DNA of 18,407 nt from a virus, in UHGV virus genome UHGV-0077132, one strand, 5' to 3'. Below the pieces are notes generated by a model. The model was not told where the DNA came from. It worked only from the letters and a program-made list of their open reading frames with translations, and made no database searches. Numbering within the stretch: position 1 is the first letter of the stretch; each line of letters opens with the position of its first letter. A program made the translations under genes and the position numbers. Shown here in pieces: positions 2,907 through 18,353 of this stretch.

Positions 2907-2909
2907 GTC

Positions 2910-2937
2910 CATAAGAAAGCCCCTCCGGAGAGGGGCT
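2910..2937 (-). terminator. Possible minus-strand terminator hairpin about 350 nt downstream of the lipoprotein gene
   Basis: Perfect 8-bp stem agcccctc / gaggggct with cgga loop (2918-2937); minus strand continues TTCTTAT. Confidence 0.25.
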
Positions 2938-3282
2938 GGAGAGTGGCGCTATGTGCCATTGCATGGTGCCGGGTGCCTCCCGGTGAGTTCAGCCCGGTGA
3001 CACTGAACCCGCGTCATTCTCGTTTTGATAATCAGAGATTATACCATCACCAGTCGCCCCTCCGCTCAGGGGGATTCACCATGCCGTTCTCTTTTAACAA
3101 ATTCGCCGCTAACAGGACAACATTCCGCTTTCTGAGTTGTGAGGAATTTAACACTTCACACCTGTGTGCATTTTCTACAGGCTGATCCCAGCACCACAAT
3201 ACATCGCAGGCAACAGAAGCCAAATGCCCCACCACAGAAAAAACATGCAATTATGATTATTGTTTACTGCAAAGATGTAGAA

Positions 3283-3711
3283 TCACGGTTTAAAATCCAG
3301 CACTCCATTGTGAAATACTTTATATACTTCCGGAGACGGCGGAACTGGTATATCAGCATGCTTCACCGCATTCATCGCTTCACGACATAAATCGGGGTCT
3401 CCACCTTCTCTTTTAACCTGTAGCAGAAGACCATTCGGGGCCATATACATTCTCAGTGAACACTCTTTTCCTGAATACTTACTCGCATCCTTTAACTGTT
3501 CTTCTATGGCTTTCCTGACCTGAATGGCATACTGCCTGATTTCTTCACTGGCATCAGGGGTACGTTCCGATGAGCTCAAATTTTGCGACTTTATTAATTT
3601 ATCTGAGTGATACAGAGAAGCATCATAATTATTTGTCGATACATCTTTTGTGCAGCCAGTTGTCAGACTGGCTAATATCAAAACAAGAACTGGTACAGCA
3701 CGGCAATACAT
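3283..3711 (-). CDS. Secreted lipoprotein with a TolA C-terminal domain (domain III)-like fold, 142 aa; candidate periplasmic TolA-III decoy
   Basis: ATG at 3711 with SD GGAG; signal peptide MYCRAVPVLVLILASLTTGC (lipobox-like, Cys21); Ser/Asp-rich linker; C-terminal ~85 aa align with E. coli TolA domain III as recalled (YSGKECSLRMYMAPNGLLLQVKREGGDPDLC ... IPVPPSPEVYKVFHNGVLDFKP versus TolA YAGKTCTLRIKLAPDGMLLDIKPEGGDPALC ... IPKPPSQAVYEVFKNAPLDFKP); both disulfide cysteines conserved. Confidence 0.8.
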   Translation of the reverse strand: MYCRAVPVLVLILASLTTGCTKDVSTNNYDASLYHSDKLIKSQNLSSSERTPDASEEIRQYAIQVRKAIEEQLKDASKYSGKECSLRMYMAPNGLLLQVKREGGDPDLCREAMNAVKHADIPVPPSPEVYKVFHNGVLDFKP

Positions 3712-3989: not shown

Positions 3990-4066
3990 TGGACCGCCAT
4001 CGAGGACTCGAACCCCGCGCAGCCAGCTTCGAAGGCTGGCGCTCTATCCCGATGAGCTAATGGCGG
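3990..4066 (-). tRNA. argO: tRNA-Arg (anticodon UCG), phage-borne, argO-like
   Basis: Minus strand folds as a cloverleaf: acceptor CCGCCAT/ATGGCGG, D-arm GCTC..GAGC, anticodon stem CCAGC/GCTGG with loop CTTCGAA, T-loop TTCGAGT, encoded 3' CCA; boundaries +/-1 nt. Confidence 0.7.
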
Positions 4067-4075
4067 TATGTGATA

Positions 4076-4151
4076 TGGTGGCCCTTGCTGGATTTGAACC
4101 AGCGACCTGGCGATTATGAGTCGCTCGCTCTCACCACTGAGCTAAAGGGCC
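4076..4151 (-). tRNA. ileZ: tRNA-Ile2 (anticodon CAU, lysidine type), ileX/ileZ-like
   Basis: Minus strand GGCCCTTTAGCTCAGTGGTGAGAGCGAGCGACTCATAATCGCCAGGTCGCTGGTTCAAATCCAGCAAGGGCCACCA; near-identical architecture to E. coli ileX as recalled; anticodon loop CTCATAA; 3' CCA encoded. Confidence 0.8.
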
Positions 4152-4885: not shown

Positions 4886-4965
4886 TAAAACTTACATCTT
4901 GAAATAATCACATTGATTAGATGAATATTTATCGCGCAGTGACATCATTTTTTTATAATAGTTCA
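4886..4965 (+). promoter_or_regulatory. Porin promoter region: OmpR-box-like repeats and a -10 TATAAT with a poor -35
   Basis: cTTACATcTTGAAAtaatCACAT (4891-4913) resembles ompC/ompF OmpR boxes; TATAAT at 4954-4959 about 20 nt before the ATG; strongly AT-rich upstream region. Confidence 0.35.
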
Positions 4966-4980
4966 AAAAAAGGGCGTACA

Positions 4981-6063
4981 ATGAAAAAATTAACAGTGGC
5001 AATTTCTGCTGTAGCTGCATCAGTACTGATGGCGATGTCTGCTCAGGCAGCTGAAATTTATAATAAAGACAGTAACAAGCTGGATCTATACGGGAAAGTT
5101 AATGCCAAGCACTACTTCTCCTCTAATGATGCAGATGATGGTGATACTACTTATGCTCGTCTTGGCTTCAAAGGTGAAACCCAAATCAACGATCAACTGA
5201 CTGGTTTCGGTCAGTGGGAATATGACTTCAAAGGCAACCGTGCTGAATCTCAAGGTTCTTCCAAAGACAAAACCCGTCTTGCATTTGCAGGCCTGAAATT
5301 TGGTGATTACGGCTCAATCGATTACGGTCGTAACTACGGTGTAGCATACGACATCGGTGCGTGGACTGACGTTCTGCCAGAATTCGGTGGTGATACCTGG
5401 ACCCAGACAGATGTGTTCATGACTGGCCGCACTACTGGTGTTGCAACTTATCGTAACAACGACTTCTTTGGTCTGGTCGATGGCCTGAACTTTGCTGCTC
5501 AGTATCAGGGTAAAAATGACCGCACTGACGTAACTGAAGCCAATGGTGATGGTTTCGGTTTCTCCACTACTTATGAGTATGAAGGATTCGGCGTGGGTGC
5601 AACCTATGCTAAATCAGATCGCACTGACGGTCAGGTCGCCTATGGTAAGAGCAAATTCAATGCCTCCGGCAAAAATGCGGAAGTATGGGCTGCAGGCCTG
5701 AAATATGATGCGAACAATATCTATCTGGCTACCACATATTCTGAAACTCAGAATATGACCGTTTTTGGTAATAACCATATTGCAAACAAAGCACAAAACT
5801 TTGAAGCAGTAGCACAATATCAGTTTGACTTCGGTCTGCGCCCATCTGTTGCTTACCTTCAGTCAAAAGGTAAAGACCTTGGTGTTCATGGTGACCGAGA
5901 CTTAGTCAAGTATGTCGATGTCGGTGCTACTTACTACTTTAATAAAAACATGTCCACTTTTGTTGATTACAAAATCAACTTAATTGACGATAGTAAGTTT
6001 ACCAAAACAGCTGGTATTGATACCGACGACATCGTCGCTGTAGGTCTGGTTTATCAGTTCTAA
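4981..6063 (+). CDS. nmpC: Outer-membrane general porin of the OmpC/PhoE/NmpC/Lc family (phage-borne porin moron), 360 aa
   Basis: ATG at 4981 (the ORF-track start at 4921 lies upstream of the -10); signal peptide [23 protein letters not shown]; mature N-terminus [16 protein letters not shown] and C-terminus ...VAVGLVYQF typical of enterobacterial porins; same Q-adjacent, opposite-orientation position as nmpC in DLP12 and lc in PA-2. Confidence 0.9.
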
Positions 6064-6251: not shown

Positions 6252-6635
6252 TCAATTAGAATTATTAGCAACGATATCCATATCTAACCGGATATCTAAT
6301 GCCATTAACATCCCTTCAATTATGCCCTCAGCCTTCTGTAACCTTTTCCCGATATAACCATCCGAGCAGCAATGCTTACTTGCCAGTGACATGAATGTCA
6401 TACCACATACATAATAATCTACTAATAAATCGTGTAAATCGCTGTTGTTCTTTTTCAGACGGGCCATGCACCCGCAAATGATCATCGCGTCATCGTCACA
6501 ACATTGCGGGCGAGATTTTACTTTTGAAGGAATTAATCCCTTAAAACCGGCAGCAATGGACGACCAGGTCACATCCTCATGATTATTTGCCGCCCATGCG
6601 CCCCAGCGTTCAAGAACCATCTGAATATCACGCAT
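6252..6635 (-). CDS. Q: Late antiterminator Q (Stx-phage/phage 82-type), 127 aa
   Basis: First ATG at 6635 gives [38 protein letters not shown]...[16 protein letters not shown], matching the recalled Q of Stx2 phages; start overlaps the upstream gene stop (TAATG). Confidence 0.85.
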
Positions 6636-7492
6636 TATTCGCACTCACCAACCAGATTGAGAATGACCGCTGCACCGTCGTCTTCCATGCATTCACCCTT
6701 ACCACTTGCCAGAAACCAGCGGCACACCTCCACGGCTTCAGCGCGTGTCACCGGTTTGATGGTTGCCAGCAATTTTTCAAGGTAGCGCTCGCGGTCATAT
6801 ACCGATTCGTGATGCTCAGAGTAACCAAACTCATCGCCCTGTTCTTTAGTTGCAGTGTGGCGAACACTGTAGAGCCAGTCCCAGTAAACGAACTCGCGAA
6901 CAACATCAGACAGCGTATAAGGCTCAGGCAGCACATCGCGATATCCATCAACAAATGCCCGACGCTGTTCATCAATTTCGTTCATGCGGCTGCCGCCAAT
7001 GCTTCCGGCTTTTTTCTCTGCCGCAGTCCAGCCCCAGAGATGATCGTTGATAAATTTCTGGGAAGACCTGATGACCCGCTCTGCTTCCACATCTTCGAGC
7101 GCTGCTTCATAGCTACCAAACGTAGCCCTGACTGATGCCGCTTTTTTGATGTTCTCCCGGGCGTTCCTGATAACCTGCGCAGGGTTATCCATGCCGATGA
7201 TGCCGAACGCAACTTGGAAAGGTTCGTAACCATTCGCCAGCAGATAACGCGAATAGCGTTCCTGAGCCTCTTTTGGGGAAATTTTAATTTTCACCAGCGC
7301 AGCCTCAGCAGCATCCAGATGTGCGGGTTCGTTCAGACGGATAACCTCCAGCACCCAAAGATAAGCATCAGTCTGCTTATGCCCGGTGATTCTCCGTTGC
7401 TCTGGCAGGGGCTTGATGTTTGCGAGGGCGGAGCTGTACGCTGCCGTCGGGATGGTGAATAGTGCTTTATGTTCGTTATTATCAGTACGCAT
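6635..7492 (-). CDS. Conserved phage protein of unknown function (nin-region position), 285 aa
   Basis: Long ORF translationally coupled at both ends (TAATG overlaps with the primase stop and the Q start); no motif recognised. Confidence 0.65.
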
Positions 7493-8460
7493 TACGCAAC
7501 CGCCTTTTTCTTATGGAAAACCAGCTCTCGAACCTGATCACCGTTCATGAGCATATTGTTGAAATCATCGTGATCCGGCCAGTACACGCTCACGCGCTGC
7601 AGGTCATTCTTTGCCATCAGATTGGCATGAGCACATTCGCAAGCCGCAGCCAGCCCGGTGGCGCTGTTCTCGTCACGGTCGGCAAAAATAATCAGGTGCA
7701 GAACACCAGCTGGTACGCGAAACTTTTTCATAAAGCCGCTGTTAATGGTTGCCCAGGTGTTCACGTTATAAATCTGGTGCGCTGACAGCGCTGTTTCGAT
7801 GCCTTCGGCGATACCCAGAGTGCTGGCGACAGGAAACATGCGGATAGCTACAGAACGAGCGTGATCCAAATAGTTATCTTCCTGCAGGGATTTGAGGCGC
7901 TTTGCACTGCTACCGATATCTGCTTTTTTATCACCATCAAGCAGAGTCTGGTGCAGATAGCACAACTCCCCTTTATCGTCCGTAGCAAGTGAATAAAGAG
8001 ACTGGAACACACTCCCGTTGTGTCTCTGCCTGGCATTGAACCGGATCGCCTCAGCAGGAAGACTGAATATTCCACGAGAATTAAGATACGCTGCGCCGGA
8101 TGTACCACGCAGTGCCTCCAGTTTTGAAAACTTGCTCAATACCCGTTTGCGTAAGCTGGTGGCGCTGCTGGTTACCGGGATTTTAACCCGTTGGTAATCA
8201 TTACCGATCAGGCGGTCTATTTCGGTACAAATCTCGTTAAATGGCTTCGCCTGTGTCAGGGTGACAAGTTTCATACCATCGCCACTACCACATACACAGA
8301 TCCACGTTCCTGCACCGTCGCGGTCATCAATTCGGAACTTGCCACGTGCACCGCATACCGGGCATTCACCCTTGAAGTGATTTTTTCCTGTTATCGGCGG
8401 CAAGCCGAAGTGCTCTAATATTTCAGGCCAGCGGCCTTTCGCTGCAGCTGCTGTTTTCAT
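7492..8460 (-). CDS. Phage DNA primase-like protein (zinc-binding plus Toprim-like), 322 aa
   Basis: N-terminal Cys cluster CPVCG...WICVCGSGDG; follows the helicase gene with a 1-nt gap; typical helicase-primase replication module. Confidence 0.65.
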   Translation of the reverse strand: MKTAAAAKGRWPEILEHFGLPPITGKNHFKGECPVCGARGKFRIDDRDGAGTWICVCGSGDGMKLVTLTQAKPFNEICTEIDRLIGNDYQRVKIPVTSSATSLRKRVLSKFSKLEALRGTSGAAYLNSRGIFSLPAEAIRFNARQRHNGSVFQSLYSLATDDKGELCYLHQTLLDGDKKADIGSSAKRLKSLQEDNYLDHARSVAIRMFPVASTLGIAEGIETALSAHQIYNVNTWATINSGFMKKFRVPAGVLHLIIFADRDENSATGLAAACECAHANLMAKNDLQRVSVYWPDHDDFNNMLMNGDQVRELVFHKKKAVA

Positions 8461-8461
8461 C

Positions 8462-10120
8462 TTACTGACTCAAACTGTTTATATTTTTCTGGAGTTGTTG
8501 CTTTGCTTGCATGATGCGCCAAGCCTCAGTGCCTATTGGCATCTCGCTTCGCTCACCTCGTTCCTGAGACAGAGGAATCGTTGCCTGCAATTTTTCTATA
8601 GTTCTCTGCGTCCGCTGACGGCCTTTGGCAAACCGAATCAGCTTGTGTTTGATGTAGTTACTTACTTCTGGGCTTATTTCCATCGGGAAACTGCTCAACC
8701 CATCAGGCCATTCACCGAATTTCTCCCTGAAAGTGTGAGCACACCATCCATCACTGACTGGACGCCCCAGCGAAGCACGCTGGCGCTGATAAAATTTGAT
8801 CTGACTCCACCAGGACTGTTTCTCTGCCTTCGTCGACTGATGCTGATTTTTACCCAGCTTATTAAGTTTGCGGCTAGTGTCAGTATCAACGTCTTCACCT
8901 CGCAGCGGCTTGTGTCCACATTTCGGGCAAACATAGACGCCAACTGGCTTCATGTAGTGGCATTGAGGGCATTCATGTGGCAGTTTTTCGGCCCGTTCCT
9001 CAACTGCGCGGCGCGCGCTTTCCTCCATGCCATCAGACTTACCGGGAAGATCGTCGTACTCGATTGAATCCGGATAACCCAAACGGTGCACGGTGCCGCT
9101 GTGATCGAAGATAAGGCAGGACGCTTTACCCGGTGCGGTGCGCAGCCCACGCCCGAGTGCCTGCAACCAGCGAATTTCGCTTTTTGTTGGCCTGGCGTAG
9201 ATGATGCAACGAACGTCACTATCGAATCCGGCTACCAGAACGCCCACACTAACGATGATTTTCGTTGCACCGGTTTCAAAGCGGTGAATGATGGTCTGGC
9301 GCTCATCTACCGGAGTGTCGGCGGTCATTACCTCAGCGTTAACACCCGCCAGGTTAAACTGGATTGTCAGATAATTGGCGTGAGCTACGTTGACGCAGAA
9401 AGCGATGGTAGGTAGATCCCGACCATTCTCCAGCCAGTTCTGTACGATGTCGCCCACCAGCGTAGATCCGCACATGATTTCAGCCAGCTGTGTTTCGTTG
9501 TAATCGCGGCCGTACTCAAGCGAAGATGTGGTTTTAACACCTTTCAGATCCGGCTTAGTTGGCGCGTAAAATTCGTATTTACTCAGATCGCCACGCTGGA
9601 TTAACTCGCCGATGGTGGTCGGCTTAATCAGTCGGTCATAGTATTTGCCCAGGAACGGGGAAAACGGAGTACCCGACAGGCCAATCACCTTTACGCCTTT
9701 GCCGCGCAGACGTTCGATATCCTTCAGGATGCGTTTTTTACGCAGGTGCGCTTCGTCGATAATCAGCAGATCGATATTTTCAGGAAAAACACGACGAATA
9801 AGCGTATCAGCGCTGGCAATCTGAATTTTCCGGTCCGGATCGTAGTTCGGGTGATCCGCCCAGATATAACCGATTTCATCTCCAGGTAAACCATACTGCA
9901 CGAACCGATTAGCCGTCTGACCAATCAGGATGGTGTACGGAACACAGAACAGAACGCGCATACCACGGCTGACAAAACCAGCAACTATGAAGGCTGCCAG
10001 ACCCGTTTTACCGCTACCGGTTGGCGAGTACACCATGAAAGTGTCGTTTGCCTTCCAGTCACGGCGCAACATGTTTAACGCTCGTTCCTGTGCAAAATTC
10101 GGCGTGATCGTCAGCTCCAT
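8462..10120 (-). CDS. SF2 DEAD/DEAH-box replicative helicase, 552 aa
   Basis: Walker A SPTGSGKT, DEAH box IIDEAH, C-terminal zinc ribbon CPQCHY...CPKCGH; ATG at 10120 with SD GGGAG. Confidence 0.85.
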   Translation of the reverse strand: MELTITPNFAQERALNMLRRDWKANDTFMVYSPTGSGKTGLAAFIVAGFVSRGMRVLFCVPYTILIGQTANRFVQYGLPGDEIGYIWADHPNYDPDRKIQIASADTLIRRVFPENIDLLIIDEAHLRKKRILKDIERLRGKGVKVIGLSGTPFSPFLGKYYDRLIKPTTIGELIQRGDLSKYEFYAPTKPDLKGVKTTSSLEYGRDYNETQLAEIMCGSTLVGDIVQNWLENGRDLPTIAFCVNVAHANYLTIQFNLAGVNAEVMTADTPVDERQTIIHRFETGATKIIVSVGVLVAGFDSDVRCIIYARPTKSEIRWLQALGRGLRTAPGKASCLIFDHSGTVHRLGYPDSIEYDDLPGKSDGMEESARRAVEERAEKLPHECPQCHYMKPVGVYVCPKCGHKPLRGEDVDTDTSRKLNKLGKNQHQSTKAEKQSWWSQIKFYQRQRASLGRPVSDGWCAHTFREKFGEWPDGLSSFPMEISPEVSNYIKHKLIRFAKGRQRTQRTIEKLQATIPLSQERGERSEMPIGTEAWRIMQAKQQLQKNINSLSQ

Positions 10121-11231: not shown

Positions 11232-11255
11232 TTAGCAACGTGCTAACATTAGCAC
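11232..11255. promoter_or_regulatory. OR-like operator: three alternating half-sites TTAGCA-acg-TGCTAA-ca-TTAGCAC
   Basis: Overlapping palindromes at 11232-11246 and 11240-11255 in the cro/cI intergenic region; a further TTAGCTAA palindrome at 11291-11298. Confidence 0.4.
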
Positions 11256-11311: not shown

Positions 11312-11767
11312 ATGGAAATCAAAGATATTCGCTTAAAAAATCTACAGACGGTAATCCAACGCAGCGGCTTAACCCAGACAGATCTGGCGTTAAAATGTGA
11401 GATATCACCCTCACTTATAAGCCAAATAATGACTAAGCGCAGAAATATGGGAACTGCTCTCGCTAGAAAACTCGAGGGGCGACTGAGCCTATCAGAAGGA
11501 TGGTTTGACATCCCCCACTCATTGCTGGATTCCCCATGGCATCTAGCTAAAATGAGGGAAAAGACTGGTGAGACCACTATTGATGAACAGCAACTAACTA
11601 AAAGAGAGACTCGACTTATTGAGTTATTCAGACAAATGCCTGAAAGCGAAAAAGACAGGATAATCAGTGAGTTATCTGAAAAGAAACGTAATTTTGACAA
11701 ACTACTTGATGAGCTAATGGCTGTTAAAGCATCAAGAATGCCGATCGACAAAGACGAAAATGAATAA
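11312..11767 (+). CDS. cI: cI-like phage repressor (XRE-family HTH, no S24 peptidase domain), 151 aa
   Basis: First ATG at 11312; N-terminal HTH LTQTDLALKCEISPSLISQIMTKRR...LSEGWF; C-terminal ~80 aa helical and charged with no Ala-Gly/Ser-Lys autocleavage motifs; flanked by the same operator motif on both sides. Confidence 0.7.
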   Translation: MEIKDIRLKNLQTVIQRSGLTQTDLALKCEISPSLISQIMTKRRNMGTALARKLEGRLSLSEGWFDIPHSLLDSPWHLAKMREKTGETTIDEQQLTKRETRLIELFRQMPESEKDRIISELSEKKRNFDKLLDELMAVKASRMPIDKDENE

Positions 11768-11801: not shown

Positions 11802-11850
11802 TTAGCATTTTGCTATTGTCAAGAATAACGCATAGCGCTACATTCACCTC
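11802..11850 (+). promoter_or_regulatory. OL/pL-like unit: operator TTAGCAtttTGCTAt overlapping the -35 TTGTCA, 17-nt spacer, -10 TACATT
   Basis: Same half-site as the cro/cI operator (11802-11816); -35 at 11816-11821 and -10 at about 11839-11844; followed by a 7-bp inverted repeat cacctca..tgaggtg in the leader. Confidence 0.35.
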
Positions 11851-11879: not shown

Positions 11880-12410
11880 ATGTTAAATGATAAACATGAC
11901 TCTTATTCCGTAAACTCTCTGTTGATTTGTGCTCAAGCGGCACTATTAGGCGGTACCGCTTCAAACCATGACGTCATCAACCTCTTAGATGTTGCACAAG
12001 ACATCATCTCTTCAACTATGAATTCCTTTACAGATAGTAGCGCTCCCGGCGCTAATGTTGATTTATTTACCAAAGAAGTTAGCGCTAGTAATTCCCCAGC
12101 ATTATCTTTCGGTCAACGTATTCTCCAAGCGCGTAAATCAGCAAGTCTTCAACAACATCATATTGCCAGCGGTGCTGGAGTGACTGTTCAGGCTGTTTCG
12201 TTATGGGAAAATGACTCAGCAATTCCTACTTGCGACAAAATTATCCCATTGGCAAATCTTCTTGGCTGCGATCCAATGTGGCTGTTAACTGGTGAGGTTA
12301 CTCCTCCGGAGCAACCAAAAAGTGAGGAGCAGCAACACCATGACGCATCTCAACAAGTTTGCCCCTTATCTCGCGAAGCTCTTCTACGGAAGAACCAATA
12401 CCAATGGTGA
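11880..12410 (+). CDS. Two-domain protein: unknown N-terminal domain plus a C-terminal XRE-type HTH, 176 aa
   Basis: ATG at 11880 with SD GAGGTG; HTH LSFGQRILQARKSASLQQHHIASGAGVTVQAVSLWENDSAIPTCDKIIPLANLLGCDPMWLLTGE; first gene after the pL-like promoter. Confidence 0.6.
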   Translation: MLNDKHDSYSVNSLLICAQAALLGGTASNHDVINLLDVAQDIISSTMNSFTDSSAPGANVDLFTKEVSASNSPALSFGQRILQARKSASLQQHHIASGAGVTVQAVSLWENDSAIPTCDKIIPLANLLGCDPMWLLTGEVTPPEQPKSEEQQHHDASQQVCPLSREALLRKNQYQW

Positions 12411-12538
12411 CATAATCGCCGCTTCGCCCCTCAAGGTACATGCGAACATTTTTATCAATCATTGCGGAAACAGTCTCAATATGAAAACACTTCTGAGACT
12501 CGCTATATAGCAGAACATATAAGTCAGCTGAGGAAACC

Positions 12539-12904
12539 ATGAAAAAGTTCGAAAACATAACTGTTCTCCATGTTGATGACTTTGATTATACAAACCCGGA
12601 ACTTCTCCCGGAGGTTGTAAAGGCAATAGATGTTGCCGATATAGTGATTAGAGAAAAGAGAATTGTCAAAAACAGGCTCGTATGCACTTCAGGAGCAATG
12701 ACAGAAACAACCTCACAGCAAGATAATTACGAAGGCATTTGCCTGGAGCCTGATTCATTTGCGGTAAATGTTTATCATTTATTGCATGCAACACAGGTAT
12801 TACATATGTCCAGTAATCACGAAACGAAAACACTCGGCAGCGAAATTCTGAGTTTTGCATGTGAGTATACAAAAGCTGCTGCCGAAAAAGAATTAGCGCA
12901 ATAA
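12539..12904 (+). CDS. Hypothetical early-left protein, 121 aa
   Basis: ATG with SD GAGGA; no motif recognised. Confidence 0.55.
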   Translation: MKKFENITVLHVDDFDYTNPELLPEVVKAIDVADIVIREKRIVKNRLVCTSGAMTETTSQQDNYEGICLEPDSFAVNVYHLLHATQVLHMSSNHETKTLGSEILSFACEYTKAAAEKELAQ

Positions 12905-12982
12905 CAACAAATATGCCCTGAACGTTTATTGCGGTTTTATCGCCGGGGATTGTTACAACCTTAAACCACAGGAGGCTTTATT

Positions 12983-13096
12983 GTGACTTTTATAAAGAAT
13001 ATGGCATCACACAAGACCGCCTGCCTTATTGCACAATACGGTGAAAATTACATGCATATTGCCTGCTTATTTCTGCGTAAAGCATACGGGAGATAA
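12983..13096 (+). CDS. Possible small ORF, 37 aa, GTG start (VTFIKNMASHKTACLIAQYGENYMHIACLFLRKAYGR)
   Basis: Strong SD AGGAGG 7 nt upstream of the GTG; its stop sits just before the next start codon; below the ORF-track length cutoff. Confidence 0.25.
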   Translation: MTFIKNMASHKTACLIAQYGENYMHIACLFLRKAYGR

Positions 13097-13098
13097 TA

Positions 13099-13317
13099 AT
13101 GCATCAGAAAACAGCAGAACACGAACAAACCAGAATATTGCTGACCATCAAAAACGGGAAAGTAATATTCATTCGCCATGTTCATGACGATGAACTTGTA
13201 GGAACTCTTTCAACATTCCTGTTTATTGCAGAAAAGGCAGGATATGACGTTATTGCACCAGCAGATGAAGATGAAGATGAAGATGAAGATGAAGATGAAG
13301 ATGAAGATGAGGAATAA
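13099..13317 (+). CDS. Small protein with a C-terminal (Asp-Glu)8 acidic tail, 72 aa
   Basis: ATG with SD GGGAGA; C-terminus ...APADEDEDEDEDEDEDEDEE encoded by a GATGAA hexamer repeat. Confidence 0.55.
   Translation: MHQKTAEHEQTRILLTIKNGKVIFIRHVHDDELVGTLSTFLFIAEKAGYDVIAPADEDEDEDEDEDEDEDEE
13264..13311 (+). repeat. Hexanucleotide microsatellite (GATGAA)x7 plus GATGAG, in frame within the CDS 13099-13317
   Basis: Read directly from the sequence; the opposite strand gives the spurious poly-Ser ORF 13182-13397. Confidence 0.95.
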
Positions 13318-13322
13318 ATATC

Positions 13323-13904
13323 ATGCAATACGATGAATTCCAGGCTGAAGCAACAGCCAATGGTATACGAACTGGCAGTATGACGATTGATTATCACGAC
13401 GCCATACGTCGTCTGGATGCCGGAGAATTCGATACTCCTAATGTGCGAGGTTTACGTATCCTTCAGTGTCTGGCGCAAGCCGACGAAGCAGGATTACTGG
13501 GTAAACTTCCGGTTGAGATGAAGGTTGCTCAGTGGCGATGGTTGTATGTGACGACATTCATCAACGAAGAAGAAGACAAGAACGGCACAATTGATATCCT
13601 GAATGAACACGGAACAACTGAACACGCCGTGGTATATAACGGGATGTATGGGTTTATGACGATATATCCCGGCCCCATTCGATTTGCCTTACAACAGTAT
13701 ATTGAATGGAATTTAATTCAAAAATACGGCGAAGCTGAAGGAATGGGAAGAGCGCTGTTTCTTTATCAGAAAATGCTCACTACTTCCCCTGATAAAGGTT
13801 TCATTCTTTCAGATATGGGTCGAGAAGGGCTTGAAATCCTTCTGGATGAAATTATTAACGAAATGAATACTCATGGCATGCAATCCGAAACAGATATTAA
13901 GTAA
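13323..13904 (+). CDS. Hypothetical early-left protein, 193 aa
   Basis: ATG 5 nt after the upstream stop with SD GAGGAA; no motif recognised. Confidence 0.6.
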   Translation: MQYDEFQAEATANGIRTGSMTIDYHDAIRRLDAGEFDTPNVRGLRILQCLAQADEAGLLGKLPVEMKVAQWRWLYVTTFINEEEDKNGTIDILNEHGTTEHAVVYNGMYGFMTIYPGPIRFALQQYIEWNLIQKYGEAEGMGRALFLYQKMLTTSPDKGFILSDMGREGLEILLDEIINEMNTHGMQSETDIK

Positions 13905-13914
13905 AAGGGACCAC

Positions 13915-14163
13915 ATGACCGTTATCGAGTATATCCAGGAAAATCCAGATTGCAGTAGAGAAGATATATCCCTCGCACTTGGAAGAAGCGCAACTTCTAT
14001 CAGTAATGAATTATCACGGTTATTGTGGAATGGGTTAATAGTACGAACTGGAGAAAAAATCAAAATGATTCTGTACTGCGTAAACAATCTGCCGTTTGGA
14101 TACAGCAATCCCCTAAGTGTTATGTTCAACCAGTTACTTAAACAGGTAAGAAATGGCAACTGA
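13915..14163 (+). CDS. Small winged-helix-like DNA-binding protein, 82 aa
   Basis: First ATG at 13915; segment SREDISLALGRSATSISNELSRLLWNGLIVR resembles a wHTH recognition unit. Confidence 0.45.
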   Translation: MTVIEYIQENPDCSREDISLALGRSATSISNELSRLLWNGLIVRTGEKIKMILYCVNNLPFGYSNPLSVMFNQLLKQVRNGN

Positions 14164-14470
14164 CTCACAACTAACCATAGAAACGGCCCTGAATGTCGGC
14201 CTGGCGCTCCTTGGTTATTTTTACATCGTGTTCTGCAGCGGACGGTGGCTGTCGCTGTTGTTCCTGAAAAAATGGAATAAACGCCGTAAGCAGGATGAAC
14301 GCCAGAAGGCAATGAATGCGTTTTCCGAAGCCTTCGGAATTGACGGCATGGAACCAGGGGATCCAGCTCGCGCAATCAGCAGAGGGGGTGTAGTAATCCT
14401 TGTATATCGGAGTGAAGAGAAAAATGACGATCACAAAACAACGAGTAGAAAAAATCATATATCGCCATGA
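14153..14470 (+). CDS. Hypothetical small membrane protein, 105 aa
   Basis: ATG with SD AGGTAAG; predicted TM segment LNVGLALLGYFYIVFC followed by a basic stretch; overlaps the next gene by 47 nt. Confidence 0.4.
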   Translation: MATDSQLTIETALNVGLALLGYFYIVFCSGRWLSLLFLKKWNKRRKQDERQKAMNAFSEAFGIDGMEPGDPARAISRGGVVILVYRSEEKNDDHKTTSRKNHISP

Positions 14471-14738
14471 AATGGGACTGAACAGCGATGTCACTGCCGA
14501 AGAGGTTTATGACCTGGCTGTACTGGCGCTGAATTTATCAAATATCGCAAACCTGAAGCGATACGAGCTTGATATGGATGGTTGCGACTCGTGCGGTCAG
14601 GATTGTGGCGCAGATATGACTGAAGATCCTGATGGTGATTATGTCCTGTTTGATGACGTGGTTAAGTTGTTTGAATTTGATACAACCACTCAAAAGTTAG
14701 AAATCCCGGCAAAGGAGGCTGCCAGTGAGCAAGATTGA
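14424..14738 (+). CDS. Hypothetical protein, 104 aa, Cys cluster and acidic C-terminus
   Basis: ATG at 14424 with SD GGAGTGAAGAG; motif DGCDSCGQDCG. Confidence 0.45.
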   Translation: MTITKQRVEKIIYRHEMGLNSDVTAEEVYDLAVLALNLSNIANLKRYELDMDGCDSCGQDCGADMTEDPDGDYVLFDDVVKLFEFDTTTQKLEIPAKEAASEQD

Positions 14739-15261
14739 CTATCAGGCACTGCGCGAGGCGGCGGAACGTGCAATTCCAGCAATGGAACGCCTGTTAATGT
14801 TGCCAGCTGATGATGATTTGTTAAGTGAACAGGAACTTAAAGATTACGATGTGGATATTGATGCGCTCAATGCCTTCAAATTTCTGACCGGACCAGAAAC
14901 CGTGCTGGCACTACTGGATGAACGGGAAAGAAACCAGCAATACATCAAACGCCGCGACCAGGAGAACGAGGATATTGCGCTTACGGTTGGGAAGCTGCGC
15001 GTTGAGCTTGAAGCAGCAAAATCAAAACTCAACGAGCAGCGCGAGTATTACGAGGGAGTTATCTCTGATGGGTGCAAGCGTATTGCTGAACTGGAAGCGC
15101 GGGAAGTTCAATTACCGACTCGCTACGACCTTCGATATGGACACCCGATAAATGCAGATGAGCGACAAGTCATGATACCTAAAGAAAATGGCAGTTGGCT
15201 TTACCTGATTGACCTAGAACACGCATTACGCGTCGCTGACATTCGCATCAAAGGAGAGTGA
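14725..15261 (+). CDS. Coiled-coil early protein, Ead/Ea22-like, 178 aa
   Basis: GTG start with strong SD AAGGAGG; central heptad-rich region (KLRVELEAAKSKLNEQREYYE); position and composition typical of lambdoid ea-region proteins. Confidence 0.5.
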   Translation: MSKIDYQALREAAERAIPAMERLLMLPADDDLLSEQELKDYDVDIDALNAFKFLTGPETVLALLDERERNQQYIKRRDQENEDIALTVGKLRVELEAAKSKLNEQREYYEGVISDGCKRIAELEAREVQLPTRYDLRYGHPINADERQVMIPKENGSWLYLIDLEHALRVADIRIKGE

Positions 15262-15262
15262 T

Positions 15263-15526
15263 ATGGCAACTTTGACAAAAAAAGAACAAGCATGGTTGAG
15301 CGAATTACAGGACGTTCTTGATCGCTGCCCATCACCGAAAAAAATTGGTTTTTACACCATTGGCGATAAAAGCATTTACCTGTATGACCTGCGCCGCATG
15401 GATGAAATCATGGAGGCTCTTGATAATCGTTCGTCAATGGATTGGTGTGTTGCTGTTCATGATATGAATGCCGGATTTGATGAAAAGATTTTATTCCCCT
15501 CATCAGTTGAAAGTACAGCAGGATAA
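15263..15526 (+). CDS. Hypothetical early-left protein, 87 aa
   Basis: ATG 2 nt after the upstream stop with SD AAGGAG. Confidence 0.5.
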   Translation: MATLTKKEQAWLSELQDVLDRCPSPKKIGFYTIGDKSIYLYDLRRMDEIMEALDNRSSMDWCVAVHDMNAGFDEKILFPSSVESTAG

Positions 15527-15536
15527 GGACTAACAC

Positions 15537-16295
15537 ATGACCACTATTACCAAAGAGCGACTGCTGACAATCAGGCAGTGGCGCGAAACATACGGACCTG
15601 GTAGCAACGTTGTACTGCCAGCAGAAGAAGCGGAAGAACTGGCACGAATTGCACTGGTATCGCTGGAAGCAGAGCCGGTGGCAAAGATTATAGCTCATTA
15701 CCCATTAGGAGTTGACGTAGGCAAACAAAAGTTCGTACAGGCCATTGGAGAGCTTCCTGACTTTGGCGGATATCTATTTGCCGCCCCGCCAGCGCCGGTA
15801 GTGCCGGAAGAAGCAACTCCGGAAAACGTAGAAATGCTCTCTGGCTATGTTTCCACGTACAAATTAACCGATAGCGAGCGCGATATTGCTGCCGAAATAT
15901 GGAACGCCTGCCGCACCGCCATGCTTCAGTCCGGAAACTTTCGGGAAAGCAAGAATTCGTCAACCAATAATTTTCGGGAAATCCCGGAAGCGTCAACCAG
16001 CTCTCCGGTAACTCCGGCTCTTCTGCCTGGTGGTTTCACCATTGAGGAGGCGAAGGAATTACATGAAGACCTGGTACGCAGCCACATAAGCAAGGCCTTA
16101 AGTGGCGAAAAGATGAAAAAGAAAGATCGCGATGCTGATTTGCGCTGGATTCATGGCGTTATAGTTCAGGCAGCGTGGTTTGTAAAAGCATCACTGGAGC
16201 AGAATGCACTATCGGGCAACTCTCCGGTAACTCCGGATGGTTGGATAAGCTGTAGTGAGCGAATGCCGGACGACAGGCAGGAGGTGAATCAATGA
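15537..16295 (+). CDS. Early-left protein with a DUF551-like C-terminus, 252 aa
   Basis: SD AAGGA; internal near-repeat (NSPVTP/SSPVTP); C-terminal WISCSERMPDD resembles the DUF551 signature of lambdoid early proteins. Confidence 0.55.
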   Translation: MTTITKERLLTIRQWRETYGPGSNVVLPAEEAEELARIALVSLEAEPVAKIIAHYPLGVDVGKQKFVQAIGELPDFGGYLFAAPPAPVVPEEATPENVEMLSGYVSTYKLTDSERDIAAEIWNACRTAMLQSGNFRESKNSSTNNFREIPEASTSSPVTPALLPGGFTIEEAKELHEDLVRSHISKALSGEKMKKKDRDADLRWIHGVIVQAAWFVKASLEQNALSGNSPVTPDGWISCSERMPDDRQEVNQ

Positions 16296-16375
16296 GCTGG
16301 CCTGATGCAATCGTAACTCTGGGGGTGGTATTCGCAGCAGCGTTTGTTGTGTTCTCGATTTGTCGATGGGGATAA
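16292..16375 (+). CDS. Small hydrophobic single-TM peptide, 27 aa (MSWPDAIVTLGVVFAAAFVVFSICRWG)
   Basis: ATGA stop/start overlap with the upstream gene and a near-consensus SD AGGAGGTG 5 nt upstream; below the ORF-track cutoff. Confidence 0.4.
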   Translation: MSWPDAIVTLGVVFAAAFVVFSICRWG

Positions 16376-16379
16376 CCAC

Positions 16380-16622
16380 ATGTTCGCTTTGATTCAACGC
16401 GGTCAGATATACACGGACAGAGCTGGATACCCCGTGGTGATTACTCGCATCACTGAGCACTCAGTGTTCTTTCGACGGATGGACGGACGATCCGGGCGGG
16501 TACGCATTGGTGAGTTAAACTGCCTGTTCGAACATATTGACCACCAGGAGTACCGCAAAATTCTCGCGGACACTGAGCAGGAAAAGCACCTGAAAAAATT
16601 ACGAGCCATAAAAAGGAAGTAA
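16380..16622 (+). CDS. Hypothetical small phage protein, 80 aa (MFALIQRGQIY...)
   Basis: First ATG at 16380, 4 nt after the upstream stop. Confidence 0.5.
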   Translation: MFALIQRGQIYTDRAGYPVVITRITEHSVFFRRMDGRSGRVRIGELNCLFEHIDHQEYRKILADTEQEKHLKKLRAIKRK

Positions 16623-16625
16623 AGA

Positions 16626-16760
16626 ATGAATAAAGCATTTGAACGATGGGTCCACCAGCGTTACGGCAATCGCTATGACCTGACGCGAGATGTTGACGGC
16701 TTCTACTGTCGTGAAGTTGTGAAGCGAATGGTTGAAGTGTGGTGCCACTGCCGTGGATGA
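16626..16760 (+). CDS. Possible small Cys-containing protein, 44 aa (MNKAFERWVHQRYGNRYDL...)
   Basis: SD AAGGAAG 7 nt upstream; below the ORF-track cutoff. Confidence 0.35.
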   Translation: MNKAFERWVHQRYGNRYDLTRDVDGFYCREVVKRMVEVWCHCRG

Positions 16761-16778: not shown

Positions 16779-17033
16779 ATGCAGACAATCATCTATCAGA
16801 TAACCCCCAGCAAATGGTGTACGGAGAGAGTCCTCATTGCATCAACAGGGCTAAAGCCTGGCACCATTGAGCGGGCAAGAAGAAAGTCATGGATGCAGGG
16901 AAAAGAATACCGCCATTACGCTGTAGAAGGTGATCCGGGGCACTACAGTGAATGCCTGTACAACATCGAAGAAATTATGCGATGGATCGAAAACCAGAAA
17001 CAACCAGGTGCCAAAAATGCAAGTTCCGGTTAA
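16779..17033 (+). CDS. xis: Excisionase-like protein, 84 aa
   Basis: Small basic protein immediately upstream of the integrase on the same strand; SD GAGGT. Confidence 0.5.
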   Translation: MQTIIYQITPSKWCTERVLIASTGLKPGTIERARRKSWMQGKEYRHYAVEGDPGHYSECLYNIEEIMRWIENQKQPGAKNASSG

Positions 17034-17066: not shown

Positions 17067-18353
17067 ATGAGTAACGCATCATACCCGACAGGCGTTGAAA
17101 ACCATGGAGGATCACTCCGTATATGGTTTCACTATAATGGCAAACGTGTCAGAGAAAACCTCGGTGTTCCTGACACAGCCAAAAACCGGAAGATCGCTGG
17201 TGAACTTCGCACTTCCGTTTGTTTTGCAATCAGAATGGGGAGTTTCGACTATGCCGCGCAGTTCCCTAATTCCCCTAACCTGAAACACTTTGGTCTGGGA
17301 AAAAGAGAGATAACCGTTAAGGCACTTTCGGAAAAATGGTTGGACCTTAAGAAAATTGAGATTTGTGCGAATGCACTTAACCGTTACCAGTCAGTAATTA
17401 AAAACATGTTACCAATGTTAGGTGAAAAAAAACTGGTTTCATCCATAACAAAAGAGGATTTACTTTTCGTAAGGAGAGATTTGTTGACCGGTTACCAAAA
17501 GCTTTCTAATGGAAAGACTTCTTCCATAAAAGGGCGCTCAGTGGTCACGGTAAACTACTATATGACAACCATAGCTGGAATGTTTCAATTTGCAACAGAT
17601 AATGGTTATACCTCAGGAAACCCATTTAACGGTCTGGCTCCCTTAAAAAAGTCCAAGGTAAAACCAGATCCTCTCACCCGTGACGAATTTATTCGTTTTA
17701 TTGAGGCTTGCCGTCATCAACAAACAAAAAACCTGTGGATTCTCGCTGTATACACGGGTATTCGTCACGGGGAGTTGGTATCGCTGGCATGGGAAGATAT
17801 AGACCTTAAAGCAAGGACTATAACCATCCGTAGAAATTATACAAAACTTGGCGAATTCACTCCACCAAAAACCGATGCAGGCACCGGAAGGACAATTCAT
17901 CTGGTTCAACCAGCTATTGATGCTCTTAAAAGCCAGGCGGAAATGACCATGCTTGGAAAGCAACATTCTGTAGAGGTGAAGCAGAGGGAATATGGGAGAA
18001 CTGCTGTGCATAAATGCACTTTTGTTTTTAGTCCTCAGGTAACAAAACAGCAGCAGTTGTCCGGACCTCACTACAAGGTTGACTCCATCAGGGAGTCATG
18101 GACAAGTATCTTAAAACGCGCAGGTCTGAGACACAGAAAATCGTACCAATCCAGGCATACTTATGCATGCTGGTCACTTGCCGCAGGAGCTAATCCTAGT
18201 TTTATCGCAAGCCAGATGGGCCACACAAACGCACAAATGGTATTCAATGTTTACGGAGCATGGATGAAAGACAACAATCACGAACAGATAGAACTCCTTA
18301 ACAAAAGACTATCTGAAAGTGTCCCATGTATGCCCCATAAGAAAGTTGGGTAA
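17067..18353 (+). CDS. int: Tyrosine site-specific integrase with an N-terminal Arm-type DNA-binding domain, 428 aa
   Basis: SD GGAGG; N-terminal GSLRIWFHYNGKRVRENLG arm motif; C-terminal catalytic region with R..HxxR and ...RHTYACWSLAAGANPSFIASQMGHTNAQMVFNVYGAW (Tyr nucleophile). Confidence 0.9.
   Translation: MSNASYPTGVENHGGSLRIWFHYNGKRVRENLGVPDTAKNRKIAGELRTSVCFAIRMGSFDYAAQFPNSPNLKHFGLGKREITVKALSEKWLDLKKIEICANALNRYQSVIKNMLPMLGEKKLVSSITKEDLLFVRRDLLTGYQKLSNGKTSSIKGRSVVTVNYYMTTIAGMFQFATDNGYTSGNPFNGLAPLKKSKVKPDPLTRDEFIRFIEACRHQQTKNLWILAVYTGIRHGELVSLAWEDIDLKARTITIRRNYTKLGEFTPPKTDAGTGRTIHLVQPAIDALKSQAEMTMLGKQHSVEVKQREYGRTAVHKCTFVFSPQVTKQQQLSGPHYKVDSIRESWTSILKRAGLRHRKSYQSRHTYACWSLAAGANPSFIASQMGHTNAQMVFNVYGAWMKDNNHEQIELLNKRLSESVPCMPHKKVG

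Follow-up and report, generated by a model that had tools for sequence, protein, structure and literature searches.

A putative accessory early-left operon in a Chi-bearing lambdoid prophage of Escherichia coli without a recognisable Rec module

Lambdoid phages that carry no recombination (Rec) module form a described class. Among 314 enterobacterial lambdoid phages, 68 (22%) have no such module, and 62 of these 68 carry at least eight Chi sites oriented so as to be active in phage lambda, concentrated close to the right genome end (Zheng et al. 2025, PMC12315714). The class typically has at least eight active top-strand Chi sites, no more than six in the other orientation, and a skew toward the right end, and its type phage, LLS, grows better with RecBCD (PMC12315714). 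In an earlier survey, as reported by Zheng et al., 134 of 275 lambdoid phages and prophages had neither an annealase nor a RecBCD inhibitor, with Chi over-represented where the inhibitor was missing (Bobay et al. 2013, PMC3784561). Here we describe a block of small genes at positions 12539-16760 of the UHGV virus genome UHGV-0077132, a stretch of 18,407 nucleotides (nt) that we refer to in its entirety as the window. The block is probably the accessory part of the early-left operon in a lambdoid prophage that has no recognisable Rec module, bears Chi sites, and lies at the mlrA (yehV) locus of Escherichia coli. It is built from exchangeable cassettes, and the phage would rely on host RecBCD and RecA.

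The position of the block beside xis invites comparison with the lambda and Phi24B exo-xis region (ea22, ea8.5, orf60a, orf61, orf63, and orf73), which is expressed early, is non-essential, and influences the lysis-lysogeny decision (PMC7093339, PMC3824215, PMC8614690). Both regions consist of small genes, and in both an Ead/Ea22-type N-terminus and coiled coil are combined with a C-terminal part that is swapped. Ea22 proteins in general join a constant N-terminus and coiled coil to exchangeable C-terminal domains, including DUF551 (PMC10834534), and the family is pro-lysogenic and tetrameric (PMC7093339, PMC10834534). However, nothing in the block matches orf60a, orf61, orf63, orf73, or ea8.5 in Pfam, the C-terminal domain of its Ea22-like protein is unrelated to the solved lambda domain, and no exo gene bounds the region. 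The Rac prophage (intR-xisR-rcbA-ralR-recT-recE-racC-ydaE-kilR-sieB) has the same type of xisR and intR genes (DUF1233), two small genes beside xisR, and an oppositely oriented gene near its immunity end, which is sieB in Rac and a gene for 86 amino acids (aa) in the window. In contrast, recET, kilR, and ralR are found in Rac and not in the block.

Chi sites and the absence of recognisable Rec genes

The full length of the window matches the E. coli FDAARGOS_1283 chromosome at 99.9% identity, and there it forms the immunity-proximal third of a 46-kb prophage adjoining mlrA (yehV). The window plus strand corresponds to the 'leftward' direction of lambda. RefSeq annotation of the 46-kb prophage and the window, together with domain searches, gives a lambdoid organisation (int-xis-early left-cI/cro-replication-Q-lysis-structural). 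The window begins with lysis genes and a SASA/NanS-type esterase, followed by two tRNAs, an ompC-like porin, QuuD, a Toprim primase with a DEAD/DEAH helicase, and a Cro-like gene on the minus strand. On the plus strand there then follow a cI-like helix-turn-helix (HTH) protein of 151 aa, a second HTH protein (HTH2), the block, xisR, and a tyrosine integrase.

No homologue of Exo, Bet, Gam, RecT, RecE, Erf, Kil, or cIII was detected by Pfam, PHROGs, and NCBIfam searches of candidate open reading frames (ORFs) on both strands, or in the RefSeq annotation of the whole prophage. The Pfam search covered all plus-strand ORFs and the larger minus-strand ORFs, and the absence of Rec genes holds within the sensitivity of these methods. 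Similarly, no gene for SSB, a nuclease, an annealase, or an anti-RecBCD protein is recognisable in the early-left operon or elsewhere in the prophage. A preliminary description of the block, made from the sequence, had already placed it in an early-left region with no recognisable recombination functions; gene order and family searches agree with this placement, and most of the ORFs did not turn out to be known recombination or housekeeping proteins of phages.

The Chi octamer GCTGGTGG occurs six times in the window (2466, 4502, 8155, 9454, 10188, and 16652), three times on each strand, where 0.55 occurrences are expected and none of 200 shuffled sequences reached six. The last of these sites (16652-16659) lies within the final gene of the block, on the minus strand and thus in the lambda 'active' orientation. 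The whole prophage contains eight Chi sites, about six times the random expectation, with five on the top (active) strand and three on the bottom; all of them fall at 0.55-0.96 on the vegetative map, and the structural genes have none. The ECOR13 phage PhiR49_2, which has been isolated and carries window positions 12241-15018 at 98% identity, has 11 top-strand and 3 bottom-strand sites, one of them in its homologue of the final gene of the block. These counts agree with those typical of the class (PMC12315714). In this phage GCTGGTGG is tied as the most frequent octamer and no Rec gene is annotated.

Judged by its genes and Chi sites, the prophage is probably a moderate rather than an extreme member of the Rec-less, Chi-bearing class, and PhiR49_2 is a textbook case. 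With the LLS-type phages (PMC12315714) and the Rec-minus/Inh-minus phages of Bobay et al. (PMC3784561) the prophage shares the lambdoid gene order, an early-left operon free of recognisable Rec genes, and Chi sites toward the right end. It differs in having only five active Chi sites where the class typically has at least eight. The early-left genes also differ, being yfbR, yfdQ, and yfdP in LLS and ST64B and other genes in the block. As the phage probably belongs to a described class without a Rec module, none of the uncharacterised genes of the block need be assumed to stand in for the missing Exo, Bet, and Gam, and a hidden recombination module is unlikely. The Rec-less lambdoid state is itself already described and is not new, and the block is an ordinary one of its kind. 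In the proposed mechanism RecBCD would be left uninhibited, and Chi together with host RecBCD and RecA would supply the recombination needed for concatemer formation. [quoted passage not shown]

Genes of the block and the start of the operon

The block comprises 13 small co-directional genes on the plus strand between the immunity region and xis/int, and is 97% coding, with 113 of its 4222 bases non-coding in the refined gene list. Four junctions overlap (14163/14153, 14470/14424, 14738/14725, and 16295/16292) and the other gaps are mostly 1-10 nt. The genes are listed here with strand, product, isoelectric point (pI) where given, and family match.

12539-12904, plus: 121-aa acidic protein; PHROG 5451 (E 5e-83, full length), PHROG 4587 over the C-terminal 65 aa
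12983-13096, plus: 37-aa basic ORF (g37), ribosome-binding site AGGAGG, directly adjoining g72 (TAATAATG); annotated as a coding sequence in PhiR49_2 and Stx1 phages
13099-13317, plus: 72-aa acidic protein (g72), pI 4.2; PHROG 340 (E 1.8e-23)
13323-13904, plus: 193-aa acidic protein (g193); PHROG 1515
13915-14163, plus: 82-aa winged helix-turn-helix (wHTH) protein, ORF open from 13873; PHROG 1687 'MarR family' (E 3.8e-24, profile positions 65-150 of 162)
14153-14470, plus: 105-aa DUF4752 single-pass membrane protein; Pfam PF15944 (E 7e-37), PHROG 667
14424-14738, plus: 104-aa acidic protein (g104); PHROG 3126 (E 3.7e-64)
14725-15261, plus: 178-aa Ead/Ea22-like coiled-coil protein; Pfam Ead_Ea22, PF13935 (E 5.9e-37); partial in RefSeq
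15263-15526, plus: 87-aa acidic protein (g87); PHROG 1714
15537-16295, plus: 252-aa mosaic protein (g252) that ends 16 residues into DUF551; PHROG 60 (E 2e-43), Pfam DUF551 (24 bits)
16292-16375, plus: 27-aa hydrophobic membrane peptide, MSWPDAIVTLGVVFAAAFVVFSICRWG, with an AGGAGG ribosome-binding site; unannotated
16380-16622, plus: 80-aa basic DUF4222 protein; Pfam PF13973 (E 1.1e-13), PHROG 285
16626-16760, plus: 44-aa basic protein (g44); PHROG 3871 (E 3e-31)

Seven of the products are small and acidic. Small acidic proteins, probably cytoplasmic and with pI values of 4.1-5.0, make up most of the set, which is completed by a wHTH protein, two basic proteins of small size, and a pair of membrane peptides. 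The genes fall into existing PHROG or Pfam DUF families without known function, apart from the 37-aa and 27-aa ORFs, which have no family match (Pfam and PHROGs for the former, PHROGs and PADLOC for the latter). Rfam gave no match inside the block. We compared substitutions by codon position with a Stx1 phage that is 87.5% identical, and an excess at third positions backs the coding status of g68 (the internal 68-aa form of the 121-aa gene), g193, DUF4752, DUF4222, and g44; at first, second, and third positions there were, for example, 9, 10, and 24 substitutions in g193 and 4, 1, and 12 in DUF4752.

The refined map bears out most of the preliminary description, which had reported tightly packed, often translationally coupled genes that included unknowns of 121, 193, 104, and 87 aa. 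These four ORFs are all where they had been placed (the 104-aa ORF reads as 112 aa from an upstream TTG), and each is a full-length member of its PHROG of unknown function. The proposed winged-helix, membrane, and Ea22-like coiled-coil proteins are likewise upheld by their family matches. For the wHTH protein the Pfam models fall below cut-off (MarR_2 at 22.6 bits against 27, and HTH_24), and the protein has a wHTH and half the usual length of a MarR protein; it is annotated as 84 aa in Stx1 phages. In the membrane protein a single hydrophobic span (residues 12-30, Kyte-Doolittle 1.67) is followed by KKWNKRRK. Residues 2-124 of the 178-aa protein cover all positions (1-139 of 139) of the Ead_Ea22 profile. 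The claim of a DUF551-like protein stands in part: the match scores 24 bits against a cut-off of 22, and it covers only positions 1-16 of the 68 in PF04448 before the stop codon. The earlier gene list lacked the 37-aa and 27-aa ORFs, and the DUF4222 gene and g44 complete the block.

The sequence that follows the truncated DUF551 codes instead for the 27-aa peptide, which fills an apparent gap: its start overlaps the preceding stop codon (ATGA) and its end lies 4 nt before the start of DUF4222. At least five diverged variants, those of PhiR49_2 and a Stx1 phage among them, are all exactly 27 codons long and conform to M-x-W-P-[DE]-A...RWG-stop. For the 121-aa gene, RefSeq calls only the internal 68-aa form, which starts at 12698. 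Shine-Dalgarno sequences precede both starts, and a 121-aa homologue at the same position in a Salmonella prophage backs the longer reading. A match of the C-terminal half of the 121-aa protein to PHROG 4836 (E 9e-4) raised the idea that it is related to the N-terminal domain of HTH2, and we rejected this relationship on a BLASTP E value of 0.66.

The block is flanked by the following features, which bear on where its operon begins and ends.

11802-11844, plus: candidate oL operator TTAGCATTTTGCTAT overlapping the promoter-like TTGTCA-17-TACATT; candidate pL, outside the block coordinates
11880-12410, plus: HTH2, XRE-type HTH protein of 176-179 aa; Pfam HTH_3 (E 6.5e-8), PHROG 4836 'CII-like regulator' (E 6.6e-56), RefSeq coding sequence
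12298-12558, minus: conserved antisense gene for 80-86 aa; PHROG 6104 (E 5e-49, full length), unannotated in the RefSeq record and in PhiR49_2
16779-17033, plus: xisR-type excisionase; Pfam DUF1233, RefSeq
17067-18353, plus: tyrosine integrase; Pfam Arm-DNA-bind_2 and Phage_integrase, RefSeq; operon end, adjoining mlrA

The palindrome TTAGCAnnnTGCTAA occurs only twice in the window, once in the cro/cI intergenic region (11232-11246) and once directly after the stop codon of the cI-like gene (11802-11816), where it overlaps the -35 element of the TTGTCA-17-TACATT site. Two matches are not by themselves above chance (44 of 200 shuffles). The site at 11802-11844 is probably oL/pL, as judged from its position and motifs, and if so the early-left operon begins with the HTH2 gene, upstream of 12539. 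HTH2, the first gene after the candidate promoter, scores 50.8 bits against the NCBIfam DicA-like model, below the cut-off, and no N homologue is apparent. Transcription of the block as one unit would start from a pL under repressor control, a short way downstream of the cI-like gene (approximately 11816-11844). The lysogen would thus keep the block silent, and its expression would come early once a cell is infected or the prophage is induced. The cI-like protein itself (11312-11767, plus, 151 aa) has an HTH domain and no S24 peptidase domain; because this domain is missing, induction probably needs an antirepressor or some other route.

The preliminary description had listed genes on the plus strand. 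The 13 genes do lie on this strand, but a minus-strand gene at 12298-12558 overlaps the left edge of the block, where it runs across the start codon of the 121-aa gene and into the 3' end of HTH2. Homologues of 82-88 aa with 58-97% identity occur in E. coli, E. albertii, Salmonella, and Citrobacter, and the antisense arrangement recurs in two other loci (L097 and L098). Stx2e phage P27 carries a partial copy. Close relatives show too little variation for a coding test, and we settled the question with the Salmonella homologue: in the core of the gene (residues 10-50), which is free of plus-strand genes, substitutions by codon position number 5, 1, and 16, corresponding to 14 synonymous and 5 non-synonymous codon changes. 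The 86-aa protein is 64% identical to its counterpart in the Salmonella prophage, compared with 33% for HTH2 and 32% for the 121-aa protein. By this pattern of substitution the antisense gene is real, and both the preliminary description and RefSeq missed it. Beyond PHROG 6104 its product matches no named family or structure. Because the gene is antisense to the pL operon, it may be expressed in the lysogen.

Conserved and exchangeable cassettes

Of 5426 complete E. coli genomes, 3443 (63%) contain pieces of the block, with a median of two places per genome, whereas at least 80% of the block in one place is found in only 14 genomes. Among 50,697 phage records, 588 match the block and none covers 80% of it. 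Breakpoints relative to relatives lie at 12241 (inside the HTH gene), ~14709-14773, 15018, 16015, and 16223, at gene boundaries or conserved N-termini. In one relative, an extra full-length Ea22-like gene that is absent from the window stands exactly where two Ea22-type N-termini would recombine. Across 80 related viral contigs the block resolves into an invariable g68-g37-g72-g193 segment, a variable middle (wHTH, DUF4752, g104, Ea22, g87, and g252), and a common xis-proximal pair, DUF4222-g44. The yehV Stx1a-converting phages (for example LC567819) and Stx2e phage P27 share g68-g37-g72-g193-wHTH-DUF4752 (87.5% nucleotide identity) as well as DUF4222-g44-xis-int, and they too have no annotated Rec genes between cI and xis. 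They differ from the window in immunity, replication, and the middle 'ea' cassettes. The names L08 and L10 given to homologues in PhiR49_2 are gene labels in the P27 style.

Exchange is also evident within the variable genes. The 104-aa and 252-aa proteins have paralogous N-terminal segments (BLASTP E 2e-5), and the middle of the 252-aa protein differs from that of its closest relatives. The C-terminal domain of the 178-aa protein does not match the lambda Ea22 domain solved by nuclear magnetic resonance, and a search of PDB sequences at E values up to 1 gave only chance coiled-coil matches. The 87-aa protein, by comparison, is conserved in length across Enterobacterales at 53-99% identity. 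At the xis-proximal end, the position beside xisR suggested that DUF4222 and the 44-aa gene might be homologues of Rac RcbA or RalR; BLASTP of DUF4222 against RcbA and RalR, and of the 44-aa protein against RcbA, produced no alignment.

The preliminary description considered each uncharacterised gene of such a region to be a candidate for host takeover or anti-defence. In its strongest form this proposal makes the block an island in which several small acidic proteins inhibit bacterial immune systems or host machinery. The early-expressed position, the seven small acidic products, and the poly-Asp/Glu tail of the 72-aa protein fit such an island, as does the rapid turnover of the middle cassettes, each of which (wHTH, DUF4752, g104, Ea22, g87, and g252) is present or absent among relatives. 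The 193-aa and 87-aa proteins both give confident AlphaFold models (pLDDT, the model confidence score, 88.6 for the latter) with no match to a solved fold, which is common for inhibitors of this kind. However, no family, structure, or literature link to such a function was found for the block proteins, and literature searches on DUF4752, on the RefSeq protein accessions of the block, and on Ea22 with anti-defence returned nothing relevant. PADLOC defence models gave only generic HTH similarities, NCBIfam gave nothing specific, and the 121-, 193-, 178-, and 252-aa proteins have no sequence relatives in the PDB. Furthermore, the best-conserved genes (g68-g37-g72-g193, g87, and the antisense 86-aa gene) keep a stable linkage or are shared between genera, a pattern closer to regulatory accessories of the core than to the cargo of an arms race. 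An island of this kind seems doubtful to us, if worth keeping in view, and individual genes may still have an anti-defence role.

The invariable segment raises a different question, as it lies where exo, bet, and gam lie in lambda. Its four genes occur together in 79 of the 80 contigs, including variants at 49-70% identity, the 37-aa ORF is present in 80 of 80 related IMG/VR loci, and genes like g72 and g193 recur in a Salmonella prophage. The 193-aa protein is modelled with an alpha/beta fold. In a collection of 5.8 billion proteins, nearly all relatives with at least 52% identity come from Escherichia, as far as the available source names show, and a profile search of 1.84 billion representatives found 102 further distant relatives of ~200 aa; a scan of genome contigs for g193 relatives found none. 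The relatives that we examined sit in strings of small co-directional genes, either in prophage early-left operons or in primase-carrying, satellite-like elements, and two adjoin ORF6N antirepressor-like genes. Distant homologues (loci L087-L091, L092-L095, and L097) directly precede primase-helicase genes in small satellite-like integrative elements, and are also found in the early-left operons of other prophages; several adjoin ORF6N antirepressor-like genes, and one contig has a ParE_like match immediately upstream. The 72-aa protein has a weak match to the C-terminal part of the 'anti-repressor' PHROGs 4792 (E 7e-6) and 2379. Its (Asp-Glu)n tail is encoded by a (GATGAA)n microsatellite (13264-13317) whose length varies in frame, being 24-36 nt shorter in three relatives and 6 nt longer in FDAARGOS_1283. 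Homology of the 72-aa protein to the small genes upstream of distant g193 relatives, or to ORF6N proteins, was not borne out by BLASTP, which gave no match.

This linkage and position could be taken to mean that g68-g37-g72-g193 is an unrecognised recombination or RecBCD-modulating module that substitutes for exo-bet-gam, and Zheng et al. concede that unrecognisable Rec proteins may exist (PMC12315714). However, neither the 193-aa nor the 87-aa AlphaFold model resembles a nuclease, annealase, SSB, or Gam-like fold, and the 193-aa protein has neither a profile match to the Rad52-like annealing proteins (Redbeta/RecT, Erf, and Sak) nor their beta-beta-beta-alpha core fold. We give a cryptic substitute of this kind hardly any credence. 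A broader version, in which the segment (12698-13904), perhaps with the antisense 86-aa and HTH genes, is a new functional module of Rec-less lambdoid phages that acts in RecBCD/Chi-dependent replication or neutralises host defences triggered by unprotected DNA ends, is speculative and improbable. If it were true, the 193-aa protein would represent a new fold.

We therefore return to the explanation that the block is an accessory early-left operon of exchangeable cassettes, in which, by analogy with exo-xis, the products most likely act stoichiometrically, binding host or phage proteins and tuning the lysis-lysogeny decision and host physiology. Experimental evidence of such tuning is confined to the Ea22 family and further exo-xis genes of lambda and Phi24B (PMC7093339, PMC3824215). 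The block genes would be dispensable for plaque formation. Several observations weigh against this explanation. Chi density in the prophage, approximately one per 5.8 kb, is near that of the E. coli chromosome, the number of active sites is below the eight typical of the class, and the count could reflect chromosomal residence rather than selection. Sequence is the only basis for supposing a single pL and a block repressed in the lysogen, and scans for consensus promoters and terminators gave counts at chance level. Among the block proteins, an experimental record exists for the Ea22 family only, and the invariable linkage of g68-g37-g72-g193, at the usual place of a Rec module, would allow for a dedicated function that has gone unrecognised. 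Finally, the portal gene of the FDAARGOS_1283 prophage (19548-22132 of locus L005, outside the window) is annotated as frameshifted, and for this reason this copy of the prophage may be defective.

The frameshifted portal also bears on whether the block is a decaying, partly pseudogenised leftover of a defective prophage, with mostly non-functional ORFs. The partial flag on the Ea22-like gene in RefSeq, the truncation of DUF551 after 16 residues, and a wHTH protein that covers only the C-terminal half of a MarR-type profile would all suit a remnant. In contrast, the ORFs are all intact and tightly coupled, and substitutions are biased to third positions. Many genomes carry these same alleles, the short DUF551 and wHTH forms among them, and PhiR49_2, which forms plaques, has much of the block at 98% identity, which indicates that the block functions in live phages. 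Decay is thus a very unlikely account of the block.

Neighbouring prophage genes and implications

The replication module (6635-10120, minus) is not of the lambda O/P type and encodes a DEAD/DEAH-ResIII helicase of 552 aa, a Zn-ribbon/Toprim primase of 322 aa, and a 285-aa PHROG 6204 protein. No recombination gene of the ninB or ninG type precedes Q in the replication region. An Rfam STnc100 small RNA (162 bits) and the two tRNA genes (Arg and Ile in RefSeq) lie downstream of Q (2907-3113 and 3993-4151, both minus). The ompC-like porin gene (4921-6063, plus, 380 aa), a moron, separates the tRNA cluster from the Q antiterminator and lies on the strand opposite to its neighbours. A DinI-like gene is located at the far end of the FDAARGOS_1283 prophage (3070-3318 of locus L005), and no stx genes are annotated in the 46-kb prophage.

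The comparison of this locus with the Rec-less class shows that, when a lambdoid prophage has no Rec module, the first reading should be membership of the RecBCD/Chi-dependent class, ahead of any appeal to hidden functions. The analysis also provides a refined gene map of a block whose pieces are present in most E. coli genomes, with two conserved genes that annotation had missed and two confidently predicted folds without structural relatives. Such genes are reasonable entries for systematic screens of prophage accessory genes. Because the block is common to Stx1-converting phages, any effect that it has on the lysis-lysogeny decision would bear on the induction of toxin-carrying phages.

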